NCBI GenBank assembly: GCA_016927555.1
Contig: JAFGML010000035.1
Span: 1-58,966 of the forward strand
DNA from: Thermoplasmatota archaeon
GTDB lineage: Archaea; Thermoplasmatota; E2; DHVEG-1
Reading direction: 5' to 3'
DNA: 58,966 nucleotides
The translations under genes were made by a program, and so were the position numbers. Numbering within the stretch: the first letter of the stretch is position 1; each line of letters begins with the position of its first letter. Below, one piece after another: positions 3,199 to 22,200 of this stretch. A model generated the notes under the pieces. That model ran no database searches and had not been told where the DNA came from. It saw only the letters and a list, made by a program, of their open reading frames with translations.

Positions 3199-4527
3199 TC
3201 ATCTGTTCCTGTGAGAGAAAGACGGTGGCGTCAGCCGTGTGTGCTTCCATTGAAGTTTCGGAACTGGTGCGAACTGTACAAGCACATCGATGTTCTTTTT
3301 GAAAAAATGAGACTCCACGTGTGCAGAGAGTCCAACACCCTTTGGTGGTCGTATGAACTCTATGGTCATCATGTTGTGCCCCAAGCAGGACAGCTCCCGC
3401 TGCGGCTCTATTTTACACACCCCGGTCAGTGGAGTTGTGTGGTGCCCATCGCTGTAGGACCCTGTCATGAGACCTGGCGCTTCACAGATCGCTAGACCAG
3501 ACCAAAATGAATTCTTACGAGCGATTCGTATGTACTCTCTGCTTGTACACGTCATCGTACAGGTGAGAGCGAGGGTTTCTTTCCCTTTGTTTGCCCGTAA
3601 TTGAATTGCAGTTGGATACACGAAATCATGCTCCTTCGCAGACACGGTGTTCGTGTATTGAAAGGAGATGTCAGAGAACTCTGTGTAGGTCTCTCCGTCT
3701 TTTGAAAAGATGAGGATGCCTGCCGCTGGTCCTTTCATAATCCAAAACAGTGCATTACCATAAAATACAGACCACCCGTTGTCAAAGACACCCCAAATCC
3801 AATCATACCCAAGCGGGTTGTTCTCAGTGCTAAAACCAAGTGATTTCGGTAGTCGTATAGTCCGGTTCTGCAGCCACCAGAACACGAGTTTCTTGTACAC
3901 CCAGAGAGTGCTCAACAATCCCGATGCCGTCGAGAGCGGATGTTCGTAATCAAAACTCCCCCAGACATGCTCCAGATACCCTGTTCCTTCAATGGTGTAC
4001 TGTTTCTGTTGTATCCTCAGGGTTCCTGAAATCCTGGTTTTAGGGATGAACCAGTACCGATAGAACCCGACGCCCATCGGCAGCCACCCTTTGGTTGCTT
4101 CTTGGGCAACCCAGTGAGGCTGCGACTCTGCCTGTGAGGTGAACTCAAGGGTGATCTCATGATCAGGATCATGAAACTTCATCTGATACAGCGGGTATGA
4201 TCCTCTCATGAACGACTGCTCGTACTGGACATCGAAGACCTCTGGGTTCTGTTGTAATCGTGTCTGTGGGATGCGTCTGTAATACTCGTAGTACTTATTG
4301 GCGTCCTCGTCAAACACAGTCATGTTGAACACAGACATCTGCTGGCGGTGTTGCGGATCGCCAAACCCCTCAGACATCGCGACCTTCACACTCCACCTCT
4401 TCTTGTCCTCGTGTGACTGAAAAAACGCCTCAATAGACCACCACTCCAGCACACTGTGTGGATGCCCTTTCTCATCTTCACGTGGATGGGACCTGTGCAG
4501 CAGTTTTTTTTGCTTCATTGACAGCAC
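3199..4527 (-). CDS. CrtC/AttH-like lipocalin-fold (hydratase/cyclase-like) protein
   Basis: EWW, GTGYLEHVWG, GYDWIW and YPT motifs typical of the CrtC/AttH/tocopherol-cyclase-like fold. Confidence 0.55.
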   Translation of the reverse strand: MLSMKQKKLLHRSHPREDEKGHPHSVLEWWSIEAFFQSHEDKKRWSVKVAMSEGFGDPQHRQQMSVFNMTVFDEDANKYYEYYRRIPQTRLQQNPEVFDVQYEQSFMRGSYPLYQMKFHDPDHEITLEFTSQAESQPHWVAQEATKGWLPMGVGFYRYWFIPKTRISGTLRIQQKQYTIEGTGYLEHVWGSFDYEHPLSTASGLLSTLWVYKKLVFWWLQNRTIRLPKSLGFSTENNPLGYDWIWGVFDNGWSVFYGNALFWIMKGPAAGILIFSKDGETYTEFSDISFQYTNTVSAKEHDFVYPTAIQLRANKGKETLALTCTMTCTSREYIRIARKNSFWSGLAICEAPGLMTGSYSDGHHTTPLTGVCKIEPQRELSCLGHNMMTIEFIRPPKGVGLSAHVESHFFKKNIDVLVQFAPVPKLQWKHTRLTPPSFSHRNR

Positions 4528-16601: not shown

Positions 16602-16919
16602 TCAGACGTGCTTGACCAACTTCTTGCAATTCTGGACTAATACTTGGATTTCCTCTTTCGTCGCATGATCAACATGCACACCACCAACCGCGACTACCTT
16701 GACATGATATTTTGTACACGCTGCCTCAGCGATCGGTTTGAGCACAACATCATCATAGTGACCAGACAACCGGATGACCCTCACCTGTTCCCCAGGCTCA
16801 GCAATCACCACACCACCAACATGTGGTCGTTCCCCACCACCAACAAAAAACACAAGGTCCTTACCGATCTCGTAGCGCTTCAGCCAGACCTTGTACTTCC
16901 CACTACCTGACGTACTCAT
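16602..16919 (-). CDS. Prenylated-flavin chaperone LpdD-like protein
   Basis: GGGERPHVG, GHYD and GGVHVDHAT motifs; overlaps the UbiD stop codon. Confidence 0.65.
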   Translation of the reverse strand: MSTSGSGKYKVWLKRYEIGKDLVFFVGGGERPHVGGVVIAEPGEQVRVIRLSGHYDDVVLKPIAEAACTKYHVKVVAVGGVHVDHATKEEIQVLVQNCKKLVKHV

Positions 16920-18213
16920 CAAGGTTCACTGTTCTGTACTTCACAATCTCATACTTACTCTTATCGACAGTAGACGGAATCGTCGCATCCACACCGACCT
17001 TATCGGTCAGCGCCTTCTTGCCCTCCTCCTGCTTTGAGGACGGGTCAAGGGAACTACCTGGTTGGTCACGCTTCACCACCAAATCACTGCCACCCTGGAA
17101 CCTGGTCGCAATCGCCCACTCAATCGCATTGGGATTGTAAATGTCAACATCCTCATCAATCACGACGACATGCTTCATGCTCTTATGACCCGAGAGCGCA
17201 GCCTCAATAGCTTTCTTGCCATCATCCGGGTGCTTCTTCTGGATTTGCACGACACCATGCAGCCATGAGCCGCCACCCATGGTCACCAGCACATTCTTAC
17301 AGACGGCTACCTTGCTGACCTGATCGTAGATCGTCGGCTCCTTTGGCATGCCCATGAGGATTTTATGCTCCAGCCGCCCAGGGATGAGCGCCTGGTACAT
17401 CGCATCCTTCCGATGCGTGATGCAATCTACGACAAACACAGGCTCCTTACGCTCAAAATCACGGGTCTCCGTCAGATCCACGAAAGGACCCTCTTTATCA
17501 ACATCCCTGATGAGTCGTCCTTCAAGCACAATCTCAGACTCAGCAGGCACCTCAAGGTCCTTGGTCTTACATCTCACCATCTTCATCGGATACAACGCGT
17601 TCGCTATGGAAAACTCATCAACACCGGACGGTGGACCAAGTGAGGCGGCAATCATCACGGGCACCGAATTCCCGATACAGACAGCCATCTCCAGGTCACC
17701 CGTGGTCTTGTCGTACGTCGTCCGTGTCTGACGACCCTTAATCAAGCGAGCAGTACACCGATTCTTGCCACGCTCCATCAGCCGATGGTACGACACGTTC
17801 CTACCAGTCTGCGGATCCTTAATCGTCGCCACGGTCGCAGTCGCATACCTGCCGCCATCACCATCCAGATGAAACAGCAACGGCAACATACTCAGATCCG
17901 GGTCCTTGACCACGACTTCCTGACATGGCGCGTTCTGCACCACCTCAGGGACCTTCGGATGACGCAAGGCTTCAACCAGCTTCATCAACAGGTTCTCCTT
18001 CGTCGTACCTAGACCTTGCGCGATGACATCCCGATCAGAGGTAATACCCCCGAACACCGGGAACCTGTAGCCTTTCACATGCTCAAAAATCACGGGTTTC
18101 TCATTCAGAGAGTACATTATATTAGCAATCTCATGTTTCACTGAGACTTCCTTGGTGATGCGAACAAGACTCCCCTGTTCTTCGAGCTTCTTGAGAAACG
18201 GACGAAGATGCAT
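16903..18213 (-). CDS. UbiD family decarboxylase (probable anhydromevalonate phosphate decarboxylase)
   Basis: NVSYHR, EGPFVD, KHVVVIDEDVD, SSLDPS, GVDAT; context of mvk and AcnX. Confidence 0.92.
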   Translation of the reverse strand: MHLRPFLKKLEEQGSLVRITKEVSVKHEIANIMYSLNEKPVIFEHVKGYRFPVFGGITSDRDVIAQGLGTTKENLLMKLVEALRHPKVPEVVQNAPCQEVVVKDPDLSMLPLLFHLDGDGGRYATATVATIKDPQTGRNVSYHRLMERGKNRCTARLIKGRQTRTTYDKTTGDLEMAVCIGNSVPVMIAASLGPPSGVDEFSIANALYPMKMVRCKTKDLEVPAESEIVLEGRLIRDVDKEGPFVDLTETRDFERKEPVFVVDCITHRKDAMYQALIPGRLEHKILMGMPKEPTIYDQVSKVAVCKNVLVTMGGGSWLHGVVQIQKKHPDDGKKAIEAALSGHKSMKHVVVIDEDVDIYNPNAIEWAIATRFQGGSDLVVKRDQPGSSLDPSSKQEEGKKALTDKVGVDATIPSTVDKSKYEIVKYRTVNLDEYVR

Positions 18214-19169
18214 TAGTACTCCACATCCTCACGCGACGCACCAATGATGGTTTTCACAGTCTGGAAGCCTTCCTTCTCAATAGCGGTGGCTACCTTGTTC
18301 TGCACGTCTTTACCCGGCGTCAAAGCGATCATGTTGCCACCCAGGCCGCCACCAGTGAGCTTCGCACCAAGCGCGCCAGCCTCACGGGCGATACTGACCA
18401 GGAAATCAAGCTCACGGGACGACACCTCAATCTGCTGCAGCAGCTTATGGTTCTCATTCATCAACTTGCCGATATCGGTGTACGACCGATCCGCAAATGC
18501 ACGTTTCGCAAGATACGCGATGTTCTCAGCCCGATCAAACACCTCCTGGTACTTCTTCGGGTTCTGCTCCTTGCGCTGTCGCACGCCATCCACTGCTGCC
18601 TTGGTGTCAGTCACCTTCCCGGTGTTGCCAATAACAATCTCCACCGGGTTTGCCAAGGTTATCCGGTCGATGACGTTCGCATCGCCTTTCTGAAACCAGA
18701 TGAGCCCACCATACGTGGATGCGGTGTTATCCACACCAGACGGCGTCCCATGGTACCCCTTCTCACCCTCGTAGGCGATCTCGTTGATCTGCTCATCAGA
18801 CAACGACATCTCATAATACTCTGCAAGAGCTCGTGCGACCGCGACGCAGGACGCAGCAGACGCACCAATGCCACTCGCGGCATACAAATTACCATCCAAC
18901 GTGATGCTCACGCCGTTTTTGGACAGATCAAGCCCCATCTTCTTAAACATCAACGAGAAGGAGTCCTTCTGCTGCTCTAGCTTATCCTCCTTGTACTTCG
19001 GCGTCGCTGGTCGCTTATCGAGCAGTGTAAACCCTGGCTTGTCGTACGGCTCTACTTTTGCTACGGTATGTTGCCCAATAGCAGATACAATCGAGGGAAT
19101 CCCGTACACCACAAAATGTTCATTAAACAAGATAGCCTTCCCGAAACCAATACCATGACCTCTCTTCAT
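18213..19169 (-). CDS. mvk: Mevalonate kinase
   Basis: GKAILFNEHFVVYG, SGIGASAA, HGTPSGVDN, GAKLTGGGLGG. Confidence 0.93.
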   Translation of the reverse strand: MKRGHGIGFGKAILFNEHFVVYGIPSIVSAIGQHTVAKVEPYDKPGFTLLDKRPATPKYKEDKLEQQKDSFSLMFKKMGLDLSKNGVSITLDGNLYAASGIGASAASCVAVARALAEYYEMSLSDEQINEIAYEGEKGYHGTPSGVDNTASTYGGLIWFQKGDANVIDRITLANPVEIVIGNTGKVTDTKAAVDGVRQRKEQNPKKYQEVFDRAENIAYLAKRAFADRSYTDIGKLMNENHKLLQQIEVSSRELDFLVSIAREAGALGAKLTGGGLGGNMIALTPGKDVQNKVATAIEKEGFQTVKTIIGASREDVEY

Positions 19170-19245
19170 ACACTATCCCAATGATGCTCAGATATATTTG
19201 GTTACATGACAAGATGAGTATATTATTTTTATGGAATATTATCCG

Positions 19246-19767
19246 TTATATTATTTTACTTGTACAATACTGCCTCATTGAGCACCGCTGACATCGACCG
19301 GGCTGGTTATGATTCCGCTCTACCACGCCTGAGCGAAGCAGGTGTCGCATCGTTTTTATCACTGACTCTAACTCGAACCGAAGCTTCGGATTAAAATGAA
19401 TAGTATACGGCTTCGTGTTGTACACCAGGATGCCCTCAGGGACAAACACCCCAAACGCCTCTTCGATCAACAGACAGTACGCAGCCAGCTGCAGGATATG
19501 ACCCTGCTGCGGCTGGGACTGCCCCCCAGTCTTCACCTCCACCGGCAGGAACTGTCCATCCCGCTGCAGGATATAATCTGGTTTTCCAGAGAGACGGAAC
19601 CGCTTGGAGAACAACGGCGTCGCAGGGACATTCAGATCAGTGTAGACCACGGTTCCTTCTGGGATGCCTGAGCGTTGCTTCTCACGAGACACCGATGACC
19701 TGATCCTGACTGCGTATGCACACAGCACACCTGCGCACACCACTAAGAGCAGACCAAAAATGAGCAC
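19246..19767 (-). CDS. Cas4/RecB-family nuclease C-terminal part with N-terminal TM helix
   Basis: GKPD...VEVK, QLAAY, CQRCSMRQYC; hydrophobic residues 1-20; GTG start. Confidence 0.85.
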   Translation of the reverse strand: MLIFGLLLVVCAGVLCAYAVRIRSSVSREKQRSGIPEGTVVYTDLNVPATPLFSKRFRLSGKPDYILQRDGQFLPVEVKTGGQSQPQQGHILQLAAYCLLIEEAFGVFVPEGILVYNTKPYTIHFNPKLRFELESVIKTMRHLLRSGVVERNHNQPGRCQRCSMRQYCTSKII

Positions 19768-19769
19768 CT

Positions 19770-20030
19770 CTATAAGACCACCTCAACCAGGAACAGACAC
19801 AACGCCACACACAACAGCACAATACCTACGAGGGCGTACCACCGTGAACACCGCATCTTCCTCTCGAACCCATCCAGTCGATCCCCAAGTTCACTATGCA
19901 TCTGTTTGCCTGGCTCAAGAAACGCTGACTGCGGTGTGTACCCCATGCGGTGCAACTGCCACGCGCACGCACAGTACATATACTGACCAATCTCAGATGC
20001 ACTGATGACATCGGTCTTCTTCGACGACAC
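19770..20030 (-). CDS. Small membrane protein carrying the Cas4 N-terminal motif
   Basis: ISASEIGQYMYC..AW and GKQMH correspond to the Cas4 N-terminus; C-terminal TM helix. Confidence 0.75.
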   Translation of the reverse strand: MSSKKTDVISASEIGQYMYCACAWQLHRMGYTPQSAFLEPGKQMHSELGDRLDGFERKMRCSRWYALVGIVLLCVALCLFLVEVVL

Positions 20031-20199
20031 CTACGCTCACACCACTGTATCCAGAAAGGACCAGACTATATATAGCTAGGAGGGGGATAGCTGAAACTAC
20101 CAGAAGGCACTGTTTGGTTTTTCCCAAACGTTTTCAGACAGTATATAAACGCTGACAGGTATAACAGGAAATACTACAATAGGAAATGATGTGAGAACC

Positions 20200-22200
20200 A
20201 TGAAAAAAGAACACGTCCAGCTGACCAGTGTGTTGTTTGTAGTAGTGTTAGTATGCGCAAGCGGCTTTGCATTGATAACCTTCTTGCCACAGAACCAAGG
20301 CTATAGCTATACACTCAATACCTTCACGTCTTATGACGATCTCCTTGCCTTCCTGCAGGAACGCTACGAAACCAGTATGAGCCAGGGTACTATGTACCGT
20401 GATTTTGGTCTCAAATGGGAGAATTCTGCTCCTGGAGTAGCCATGGATGCCGGGGAAGCACTCGGTAGTGGGGGGGCTCCTTCCTACTCAACAACGAATG
20501 TCCAAGTCATCGGTGTCGATGAGCCGGACATTGTCAAAACTGATGGCACCTACCTGTACGTGCTGGCGAACCAAACGATTTACATCCTGAAAGCATACCC
20601 GGTGTTCGATGCAACGATTCTTGCTACCATCTCTGTGCAGAACGTCTACATTAGCGATTTATTCATCCGAGGGGACCGTCTGGTACTGTTCGGCGAAGAG
20701 TACGAGTCCTATGACCCTGAGAAAGGAGACGTAGGAATCTATGGGAACTACTGGTGGGGTGGTTCTTCACAAACCGTGATTCGTGTCTATGACATCACTG
20801 ATAAAACGACCCCTGTGTTATCCAAAGAAGTGAAAATCGACGGCAGCTACTTTGACGCTCGCTTAATCGATGAGTACGTGTACCTGGTTGCCACCGAGTA
20901 CACCTACAACATTTACCGCATGATTGATGAGCAGAACTACACCCTGGAGATCCCAACGATACGGATTGATAACGACACGCAGAACATCTCTGCTGATAAG
21001 ATTTACTATGTGGACGTCCCAGAGCTCTCAGACACCATGAGCCATGTGCTGTCCATTAACCTGGACACCAACGAGGTTGACGAGAAGAGCTTCATGCTGG
21101 GCAGCTCCCAGACCATGTACGTCTCACGGGACAACATCTACCTTGCTTCAGCCCACTACCCGGTCTATGCTCTCTACATGACTCAACAGGGGGTGCCATC
21201 AACCGGTATCGATGAGACGACTATCCTGCATAAGATCTCTATCAACTCAGGGGACATCACCTACATCGCCCAAGGAGAAGTCCCTGGTCACATCCTCAAC
21301 CAGTTCTCCATGGATGAGCACAACGGGTTCTTCAGGATCGCAACGACCGTGGGCAACAACTGGGGCGAAGGCTCGCAAACCAGCAACAACGTGTACATCC
21401 TGGATGCCGACCTGAAGCAGATTTCACAGATTGAGAACATCGCACCTGGCGAGTCCATCTATGCAGCCCGGTTCCTAGGCGACCGAGCGTACCTCGTGAC
21501 CTTTGTGCAGGTTGACCCGCTCTTCACCCTTGACCTCTCAGACCCATACAACCCACGGATCCTTGGTGAACTGAAAATCCCTGGCTACTCTGAGTACCTC
21601 CACCCGTACGATGAGACGCACATCATCGGCGTTGGAAAAGAAGTCGACCCCAGCATTGATGCAGACAAGATTCACACCACCCACGCGGTGTACTACACCG
21701 CTATCCTAGGGGTGAAGCTCGCACTCTTCGACGTCAGCGACATAGAGCATCCTGTGGAAGTCGCCAAGGTCGTCATCGGCGACCGTGGCACGGACAGCCC
21801 AGTCCTGTACGATCACAAAGCCTTCCTCTTCGACAGGGAAAAAGAACTCCTGGTCATCCCCATCAGCTTGTATGAGATCCCACAAGCAACGATTGATACT
21901 ATCAATGAGAGTAACATCATAGAGATACCACAAGACTGGGGGCAGTTCACCTTCCAAGGAGCCTATGTGTACCACCTCAGCCTGGAGAACGGGTTTGACT
22001 ACCATGGGCGCATCACCCATCAGACCCCTGAGCAGGTGCAACAGCAAGGACAGGACTACTACTGGTACTGGGGATCCTCTGACACCGACATCACCAGGTC
22101 CCTGTACATTGGAGATAACCTGTACACCATCTCCAATGCCATGGTGAAAATCAATGCTCTCACTGATCTCAGCGAACTGACCAGTATTTCCTTTGCATAG
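20200..22200 (+). CDS. Secreted beta-propeller domain protein (Beta_propel family)
   Basis: Signal anchor; YSTTNVQVIGVDEPDIVKTDG, NQFSMDE, DPLF, LGELKIPGYSEYLHP, DHKAF. Confidence 0.9.
   Translation: MKKEHVQLTSVLFVVVLVCASGFALITFLPQNQGYSYTLNTFTSYDDLLAFLQERYETSMSQGTMYRDFGLKWENSAPGVAMDAGEALGSGGAPSYSTTNVQVIGVDEPDIVKTDGTYLYVLANQTIYILKAYPVFDATILATISVQNVYISDLFIRGDRLVLFGEEYESYDPEKGDVGIYGNYWWGGSSQTVIRVYDITDKTTPVLSKEVKIDGSYFDARLIDEYVYLVATEYTYNIYRMIDEQNYTLEIPTIRIDNDTQNISADKIYYVDVPELSDTMSHVLSINLDTNEVDEKSFMLGSSQTMYVSRDNIYLASAHYPVYALYMTQQGVPSTGIDETTILHKISINSGDITYIAQGEVPGHILNQFSMDEHNGFFRIATTVGNNWGEGSQTSNNVYILDADLKQISQIENIAPGESIYAARFLGDRAYLVTFVQVDPLFTLDLSDPYNPRILGELKIPGYSEYLHPYDETHIIGVGKEVDPSIDADKIHTTHAVYYTAILGVKLALFDVSDIEHPVEVAKVVIGDRGTDSPVLYDHKAFLFDREKELLVIPISLYEIPQATIDTINESNIIEIPQDWGQFTFQGAYVYHLSLENGFDYHGRITHQTPEQVQQQGQDYYWYWGSSDTDITRSLYIGDNLYTISNAMVKINALTDLSELTSISFA

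Follow-up and report, generated by a model that had tools for sequence, protein, structure and literature searches.

A conserved two-gene locus that probably encodes a split, membrane-tethered Cas4-family nuclease in Thermoplasmatota

Cas4 proteins (TIGR00372/PF01930; structures 4ic1, 4r5q and 8d3l) carry a PD-ExK nuclease site, a QxxxY motif and four cysteines, one N-terminal and three in a CX2CX5C arrangement, and the known members are single soluble chains. More broadly, Cas4 and its RecB, AddB and Dna2 relatives are regarded as soluble single-chain nucleases, although many Cas4 genes lie outside CRISPR (clustered regularly interspaced short palindromic repeats) loci. Solo-Cas4 proteins (Hudaiberdiev 2017, PMC5704561; M. 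mazei, PMC12501428) are described as encoded away from CRISPR-cas loci and as having an iron-sulfur (Fe-S) nuclease core, and in the iron-staple nuclease domains of AddB, RecB and Dna2, as outlined in the latter text, a cluster ties one N-terminal cysteine to C-terminal cysteines around a RecB-type fold. Here we analyze a pair of genes, A and B, on the minus strand of contig JAFGML010000035.1 (assembly GCA_016927555.1) of a Thermoplasmatota archaeon, the whole 58,966-nucleotide stretch being referred to as the window. The pair has the Cas4 motifs and, like Solo-Cas4, lies apart from CRISPR-cas loci. Unlike known Cas4 proteins, it consists of two genes with two transmembrane (TM) helices after the N-terminal segment and is unlinked to cas1, cas2 or an array; the M. 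mazei Solo-Cas4, in contrast, is described as a soluble high oligomer, and the staple of AddB, RecB and Dna2 lies within one chain, whereas here it would bridge two. A first-pass annotation of this DNA had proposed a split solo Cas4 with two membrane anchors, and the motifs and TM helices of A and B are indeed all present. We consider it probable that the pair is an operon for a heterodimeric, membrane-tethered, CRISPR-independent nuclease of the Cas4 family (RecB-like PD-ExK).

The sequence of B identifies it as a Cas4 nuclease core. Its product scores 75.8 bits against the cas4 equivalog TIGR00372 (cut-off 65) over profile positions 60-180 of 180 and 46.9 against Pfam PF01930 (cut-off 22.7) over positions 53-159 of 160, and a profile of its relatives matches the Cas4 chains 8d3l (3.3e-9), 4r5q and 4ic1 in the PDB. 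The features previously read in B, namely an initial TM helix followed by basic residues, PD-ExK, QLAAY and CxxCxxxxxC, are all found in the 173-aa product, where the residue directly after D64 is Y (GKPD(64)Y). Gene A encodes a Cas4 N-terminal piece with a C-terminal TM helix. As had been annotated, it carries the first cysteine, a G..H motif and a TM end after basic residues, in the order ISASEIGQYMYC (C20, in ...QYMYC), GKQMH (H45), RKMRCSRW and a hydrophobic tail of 23 residues that reaches the last residue. The A product matches a PADLOC Cas4 model over positions 4-47 of 161 (E 0.0047), and it has no match among Pfam and NCBIfam models. Since these profile matches cover complementary positions, A and B represent complementary parts of one Cas4, and where a Cas4 is ordinarily a single soluble polypeptide of ~160-220 aa, its four cysteines are here spread over two open reading frames (ORFs) with one TM helix each, C20 in A and C159, C162 and C168 in B. 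The window's genome has a single copy of each gene. Coordinates are collected in Table 1.

Table 1. Features of the A-B locus, in window positions
Feature	Position	Strand	Remarks
Gene A	20030..19770	minus	GTG start, 86 aa, TAG stop at 19772-19770; from the ORF list
C20 codon, predicted first Fe-S ligand	19971..19973	minus	invariant in 61/61 A sequences; ligand role inferred from the Cas4 family
H45 codon, predicted active-site metal ligand	19896..19898	minus	invariant in 61/61; role inferred
TM1 (A residues 64-86)	19773..19841	minus	Kyte-Doolittle 19-residue mean 3.06
Shine-Dalgarno element GAGGTGG, within the last bases of gene A	19778..19784	minus	relatives read GAGGTGATCC here
ATA codon in the B frame overlapping the A stop (ATAG), proposed B start	19771..19773	minus	fixed spacing to the Shine-Dalgarno element
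Gene B as listed	19767..19246	minus	GTG start, 173 aa; N-terminal TM helix and Cas4 nuclease core
TM2 (B residues 1-20), then RIRSSVSREKQRS	19708..19767	minus	hydropathy 2.71; 5 Lys/Arg in the following 15 residues
PD-ExK motif (D64, E77, K79; GKPD64, PVE77, V, K79)	19531..19578	minus	invariant in 61/61 B sequences
QxxxY motif (Q93LAAY97)	19477..19491	minus	invariant in 61/61 B sequences
C159-x2-C162-x5-C168, three predicted C-terminal Fe-S cysteines	19264..19293	minus	invariant in 61/61 B sequences

Conservation of these residues follows the same division. Across the 61 sequences of the A-family alignment A11, C20, W24, G41, H45 and G49 are invariant, and the joint invariance of C20 and H45 in A and of D64, E77, K79, Q93, Y97, C159, C162 and C168 in B supports a site shared between the two products. 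A weak match to 8d3l aligns H45 with the G..H motif found in the N-terminal part of Cas4. In the Sulfolobus Cas4 structure, as described in PMC13621843, the metal is ligated by a histidine upstream of the acidic residues, and H45 may be the equivalent of that histidine, as far as the weak alignment goes.

Both genes, and the break between them, are maintained among related genomes. B is present in 27 of 41 of these and A in exactly the same 27, so that the two are kept together, and the prediction that a two-gene architecture would recur elsewhere is borne out in 23 of 23 genomes of the window's family and in 65 of 80 loci examined more widely. In all 23 family carriers A is an open frame of 86-141 aa that ends after TM1. 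All 11 same-genus loci that were read have the stop after TM1 with B in the +2 frame, and two further genomes of the genus and all 5 loci read from three other genera of the family agree. The four carriers that belong to the class but not to this family have the A-like part within a fused open frame of 306-442 aa, a single ORF with 2 or 4 TM helices between the Cas4 N-terminus and the core. The variant with four helices instead of two is seen in the single-chain relatives L014, L015 and P0246.

These comparisons bear directly on whether the split results from faulty sequencing or assembly or from recent pseudogene formation, a reading whose probability we regard as negligible. One relative does have a broken B: at L023 (G018:C10:426900-430500), from the same genus, gene A is intact and gene B has six internal stops (4 TGA, 2 TAA), and this B is a decaying copy of the large subunit, broken by frame changes. 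However, independent assemblies that span several phyla (38-67% protein identity) share the same stop position, with both halves under clear purifying selection, and the error or pseudogene explanation is already refuted by this conservation. The first-pass annotation had held that single-ORF homologs together with a frameshift or assembly error at the junction would speak against a split; the distant homologs are in fact single ORFs with the same TM hairpin, but the stop at the junction is conserved and does not represent an error. When window positions 19100-20200 were compared with a DNA run that may come from the source sample and with two metatranscriptome runs of the same study, only short pieces from foreign organisms aligned, with 90-99% likeness and no bearing on the junction in either direction; no contig covered 19655-19950.

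The split form extends well beyond the window's family. A scan of one genome per species gave 586 B relatives, and the best 80 of these loci come from Thermoplasmatota, Methanothrix, Methanotrichaceae, a Methanofollis, a Syntrophobacterales bacterium and many Chloroflexota. They comprise 65 split loci, 2 fused loci and 13 without an adjacent A; a script had returned 63, 2 and 15, respectively, and inspection of translations moved L055 and L077 to the split class. Among the 63 scripted splits the frame offset is +2 in 57, +1 in 3 and 0 in 3, and the stop is TAG in 27, TGA in 23 and TAA in 13. All 13 loci without an adjacent A are from Chloroflexota. In four of five such genomes tested, an A homolog is encoded elsewhere (E about 1e-18), so A is retained even when unlinked; in three of these four there is no B within the fetched loci of 1.7-3.2 kb around A, and G041 has one solo A plus a second A-B pair. 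In several Chloroflexota loci (L073, L079, L080, L082, L089, L092 and L102) the TM-bearing B directly follows a gene resembling short-chain dehydrogenases and enoyl reductases, with no A between; A has its place elsewhere in the genome.

Fused forms help to interpret the A segment and the hairpin. The fused L072 has the TM hairpin (311 aa). The other fused locus, L063 (positions 3827-4444, a Thermoplasmata metagenome-assembled genome), encodes a soluble protein of 205 aa without the hairpin, at 48% identity to B. L063 matches the cas4 equivalog TIGR00372 over positions 1-179, which identifies the A-like segment as an ordinary Cas4 N-terminus, and since it has no hairpin, the TM hairpin can be cleanly lost or gained. 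A single-sequence phmmer search with L063 gave no match among PDB sequences; profile searches did. When a profile of the 61 A sequences was run against 1.84 billion representatives, 1302 matched at E<=1e-3 and 399 at E<=1e-10, and of the best 150 matches, 144 are 65-132 aa long, 5 are fused TM forms of 265-357 aa and one is a 187-aa oddity. In a quick, unrooted SH-aLRT tree of the nuclease core (71 rows, namely 61 alignment rows and 10 fused forms, excluding the 13 Chloroflexota loci with B only as well as L038, L054, L055, L077 and L097), fused forms are interspersed among split ones and well-supported branches force at least 2 changes; for instance, P0194, which is fused, groups with the split Methanofollis locus as its sister (support 99), and the Thermoplasmatota split forms make up one clade of 35 rows (support 97). 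This scatter points to repeated fission and fusion at the hairpin loop, as would be expected if split and fused forms were functionally equivalent. We picture the ancestral form as one polypeptide in which a TM hairpin separates the N-terminal Cys/His segment from the nuclease core; in the window's family and in most other carriers, a stop codon in the hairpin's outer loop would have divided the gene.

Both products are predicted to be anchored with their soluble parts on the same side of the membrane. TM1 of A is preceded by 4 lysines or arginines in 15 residues and followed by none; over 61 A-B pairs, the mean number of these residues is 3.7 in the 15 before TM1 and 0.3 in the short tail after it, and 0.07 before TM2 and 4.8 in the 15 residues after it. 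The positive-inside pattern invoked in the first-pass annotation to place both halves in the cytoplasm thus holds at both helices and suggests that the soluble parts of A and B face the cytoplasm. The cytoplasm is the site of Fe-S protein maturation. With its single TM helix at the extreme C-terminus (residues 64-86 of 86), no N-terminal signal and, over the 61 sequences, a mean of 2.3 residues past the best 19-residue TM window, the product of A is predicted to be a membrane protein of the tail-anchor type.

Structure modeling of the two products, which had been suggested as a check, is consistent with a complex. Given B, a 4Fe-4S cluster and A, each protein with its 61-row alignment, the model reached ipSAE values of 0.76, 0.77 and 0.77, against 0.00 for the best of three controls, with a partner pLDDT of 79 and contact agreement between runs of at least 95%; of 80 solved complexes, 58 attain the pass mark used here, compared with 2 of 110 mismatched pairs. 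Modeled contacts join the TM helices (B 1-26 with A 58-83) and link A 6-28 to B 58-65, 87-100, 133-153 and 158-168, which places the region around C20 against the region with the three B cysteines. The model thereby supports binding of A to B. In the mechanism that we propose, subunit A would contribute the first cluster cysteine, C20, and the histidine H45, held at the membrane by its C-terminal helix, and subunit B, held by its N-terminal helix, would contribute D64/E77/K79, Q93/Y97 and the other three cysteines. The soluble parts would fold back together as a single Cas4 domain against the inner membrane face, with the two TM helices packed together and the cluster and active site shared between the chains.

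The junction itself has a distinctive anatomy. It reads GAGGTGG-TCTT-ATAG-AG-GTG on the minus strand, with B in the +2 frame relative to A, so that stop and start overlap or abut and a Shine-Dalgarno (SD) element lies inside the upstream gene. The sequence that relatives have at this element, GAGGTGATCC, pairs perfectly over 10 bases with the 16S 3' end GGATCACCTC; the comparison used the 16S of a same-genus genome, which ends ...GGATCACCTCCT, a search of the window's own genome for a 16S gene having found none. The first-pass annotation had started B at the GTG that lies 2 nucleotides after TAG, preceded by GAGGTGG. Both elements are present, but relatives point to the ATA codon at 19773-19771 as the probable start. 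We counted start codons in 36 Thermoplasmatota-type loci (L024-L053, L055-L058, L062 and L076) out of 46 rows with an SD-like motif, leaving out L067, L079, L081, L090, L091, L093, L095, L100 and L101, which belong to other clades, and the row of the window, where the script had taken the second GAGGTG. The B-frame codon 7 nucleotides after GRGG is ATA in 31 of the 36, and the others have GTG (L050), TTG (L058), ATT (L044), CTA followed by ATG (L039) and TTA (L056), a canonical GTG or TTG thus standing at the overlap in 2; read directly from its junction sequence, the window also has ATA at this distance.

Several further features mark this position. In L038 and L076 the stop of A is shifted and the spacing between ATA and the SD element is unchanged. 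The last residue of A is variable (L, V, R or P) with the third base of its codon constantly A, and the B-frame codon that follows is GAN (Asp or Glu), N being any of the four bases; a constant third base and GAN variation are marks of a start position, and on these grounds we propose ATA as the start site. In many relatives there is no ATG, GTG or TTG before the middle of TM2; the intervening codons are open, encode hydrophobic residues and show synonymous changes among close relatives. The most likely reading of these sequences is that B starts at an AUA that overlaps the stop of A (AUAG or AUAA), with SD-assisted coupling; in the window, the GTG two codons downstream is a possible alternative start. 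Translation of B would then be coupled to that of A by a ribosome that is held by the extended SD pairing and starts 7 nucleotides downstream, at the stop-overlapping codon. Coupled gene pairs with a 4-nucleotide ATGA overlap have the same geometry and the same +2 frame, and the Methanothrix and Chloroflexota A-B junctions that we inspected are canonical overlaps (ATGA, GTGA, TTGA or TAATG); in the window's family, by contrast, the overlapping codon is a non-canonical ATA (ATAG/ATAA).

An alternative that makes use of the same anatomy is programmed frameshifting or hopping of the ribosome (+2 or -1) at the stop of A. The product would be a single fused chain that retains the whole TM hairpin, and the SD-like element would act as stimulator. 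Release-factor-2 genes have such an SD-like stimulator just upstream of an in-frame stop at a programmed frameshift, and here the perfect anti-16S element ends 1-3 nucleotides before the last sense codon, the ..TA-TA-G repeat permits re-pairing at two of three codon positions, ATG, GTG and TTG are absent near the junction in many family members, and naturally fused forms exist. The predominance of the +2 offset (57 of 63 scripted splits) fits as well, but ATGA-type overlaps produce this offset by themselves, and the frame relation is not obligatory, being 0 in L071, L076 and L101 and +1 in L038 and L086. Gaps reach 36 nucleotides in L071, 15 in L101 and 790 in L097 (A upstream), L076 has an in-frame TGA and L071 and L101 have in-frame stops, so that variants of this kind break the frame, and in the Chloroflexota genomes with A elsewhere the two genes are wholly unlinked. 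Unlike release-factor-2 sites, which need +1, the junction would need +2 or -1, and no common slippery codon precedes the stop, re-pairing having to occur on CCT, TTT, CTT, GTT, CGT or ACT. The constant distance from ATA to the SD element in L038 and L076, where the stop moves, also speaks against it, as does the window's B frame, which is closed by a TGA three codons before ATA and five before GTG. With neither a fixed frame relation nor a shared slippery codon, we consider a frameshift highly unlikely and favor coupled initiation of a separate B chain.

The pair is also independent of CRISPR by its genomic setting. The earlier statement that the window has no CRISPR array or other cas gene agrees with our finding of no tandem or CRISPR-like direct repeats in the window and no Cas1 match in the window's genome (85% complete). 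Among the 24 family genomes, 22 encode the split Cas4, whereas a single one has strong Cas1 matches (E<=6.6e-54); seven other family genomes have only weak matches (E 2e-5 to 9e-4) to a frame of ~671 aa, in G019 at 23.6 bits and barely above the cut-off of 22.3, and we did not accept this frame as Cas1. Rather than standing beside cas1, cas2 or an array, A-B has as neighbors genes for a mevalonate kinase, a UbiD-family enzyme, a beta-propeller protein and an alanine-dehydrogenase-like protein. A conserved third partner was sought and rejected: in an all-versus-all comparison of flanking ORFs from 81 loci, neighbors were common only within clades, and A-B alone is common to loci across clades. 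A-B is therefore a self-contained module that is vertically inherited in the window's family and has probably been transferred between distant lineages.

A number of observations weigh against a two-chain, cluster-sharing enzyme translated in this manner. In the window a canonical GTG lies two codons past ATA, and archaeal initiation at AUA found no support in those parts of the literature that were searched. The pass of the complex model may partly reflect memory of solved single-chain Cas4 folds, A and B being halves of one fold, and the modeling job differed from the one on which the tool was calibrated in using our own alignments and including a ligand. According to PMC12501428, solo and CRISPR-linked Cas4 can stay active without the cluster, so B alone might retain some activity, and no A was found in one of the five Chloroflexota genomes tested, whose completeness is not given. 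The last two points favor the alternative that B is a self-sufficient membrane-anchored nuclease for which A is dispensable or a regulator and not a structural half, as do the 13 of 80 loci without an adjacent A and the activity of cluster-free Cas4 mutants in some species (PMC12501428). Against this, A accompanies B in all 27 carriers among the 41 relatives and keeps an invariant Cys and His that share one fold with the core in single-chain Cas4, profile positions 1 to about 55 are missing from B, and the complex model is confident (ipSAE 0.77). We judge a self-sufficient B to be improbable and retain the heterodimer as the better account of the pair.

What such a heterodimer might do is less firmly indicated. 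A nuclease that processes 5' ends and is anchored to the inner membrane face would encounter incoming DNA ends, and trimming or destruction of the ends of viral, conjugative or taken-up DNA at the membrane is a role that we put forward tentatively; a role in membrane-linked repair or turnover is about as likely. The location of A-B among housekeeping genes and its vertical inheritance fit a housekeeping role at least as well as defense. A more elaborate proposal, which we regard as doubtful, is that of an obligate two-chain Cas4 in which the Fe-S staple and the active-site histidine are supplied in trans by the 10-kDa tail-anchored A. The nuclease would then be switched on only once both chains meet and the cluster is inserted, acting as a redox-, iron- or assembly-gated gatekeeper for entering DNA ends, and in the window's family the stoichiometry of its chains would be set by reinitiation at a conserved, non-canonical AUA over the stop of A.

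Searches of the literature for a membrane-bound or transmembrane Cas4, which did not extend to paper supplements, returned nothing relevant. The words 'transmembrane' and 'split' do not occur in the text of the Cas4 phylogenomics study (PMC5704561), whose supplements, outside this count, may list such proteins, and 'membrane' does not occur in the text of the M. mazei Solo-Cas4 study (PMC12501428). Supplements excepted, a split membrane-tethered form of Cas4 thus seems to be undescribed in the literature searched. The matches point to a large, conserved, cross-domain Cas4 subgroup that would be membrane-tethered and mostly encoded by two genes, with at least 399 clusters (50% identity) matching A at E<=1e-10. 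If the proposed reading is true, this would be the first membrane-located Cas4 and would direct attention, for solo Cas4 proteins, to DNA at the cell envelope; it would also offer a natural split enzyme with an Fe-S staple and a catalytic ligand across a subunit interface, and a testable, conserved case of termination-coupled AUA initiation in archaea.

There is also a practical point of annotation. The large subunit is annotated as an ordinary Cas4: of 1276 B relatives at E<=1e-3 in a large protein collection, the best 120 are 151-203 aa long, and the named ones among them are Cas4 or Dna2/Cas4 domain proteins from Thermoplasmatota. Gene A, in turn, is easily overlooked by gene callers. The 30 ESM-Atlas clusters nearest to A have no common Pfam family, and the three displayed are all labeled 'hypothetical protein'. 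Among these 120 matches, at least 20 different lengths have been assigned to B by gene callers, most commonly 201, 191 and 168 aa, a spread that reflects arbitrary start choice, either at an ATG upstream that derives from another frame or at an ATG within TM2, and database entries of the B family probably carry wrong N-termini. We considered and rejected a start at the upstream in-frame ATG of the 201-aa calls: this ATG arises from the conserved R-W codons of A, the stretch that follows it has no protein conservation, and neither in the window nor in several of the relatives does the frame stay open there.

Two minor observations concern the surroundings of the pair. The sequence CTATATATAG at 20066-20075 (minus strand), ~40 nucleotides upstream of the GTG of gene A, may be an archaeal TATA box; it lies in the 160-nucleotide divergent intergenic region between gene A and the beta-propeller gene (20191-22200, plus strand). 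On the other side, at 16903-19169 on the minus strand, are the mevalonate kinase (318 aa, with GHMP kinase domains) and UbiD-family (436 aa) genes, which share base 18213 between stop and start. In relatives these two are followed by a conserved ORF of ~106 aa, the trio being syntenic in 16-18 of 81 loci, and it looks like an archaeal modified mevalonate-pathway cluster.

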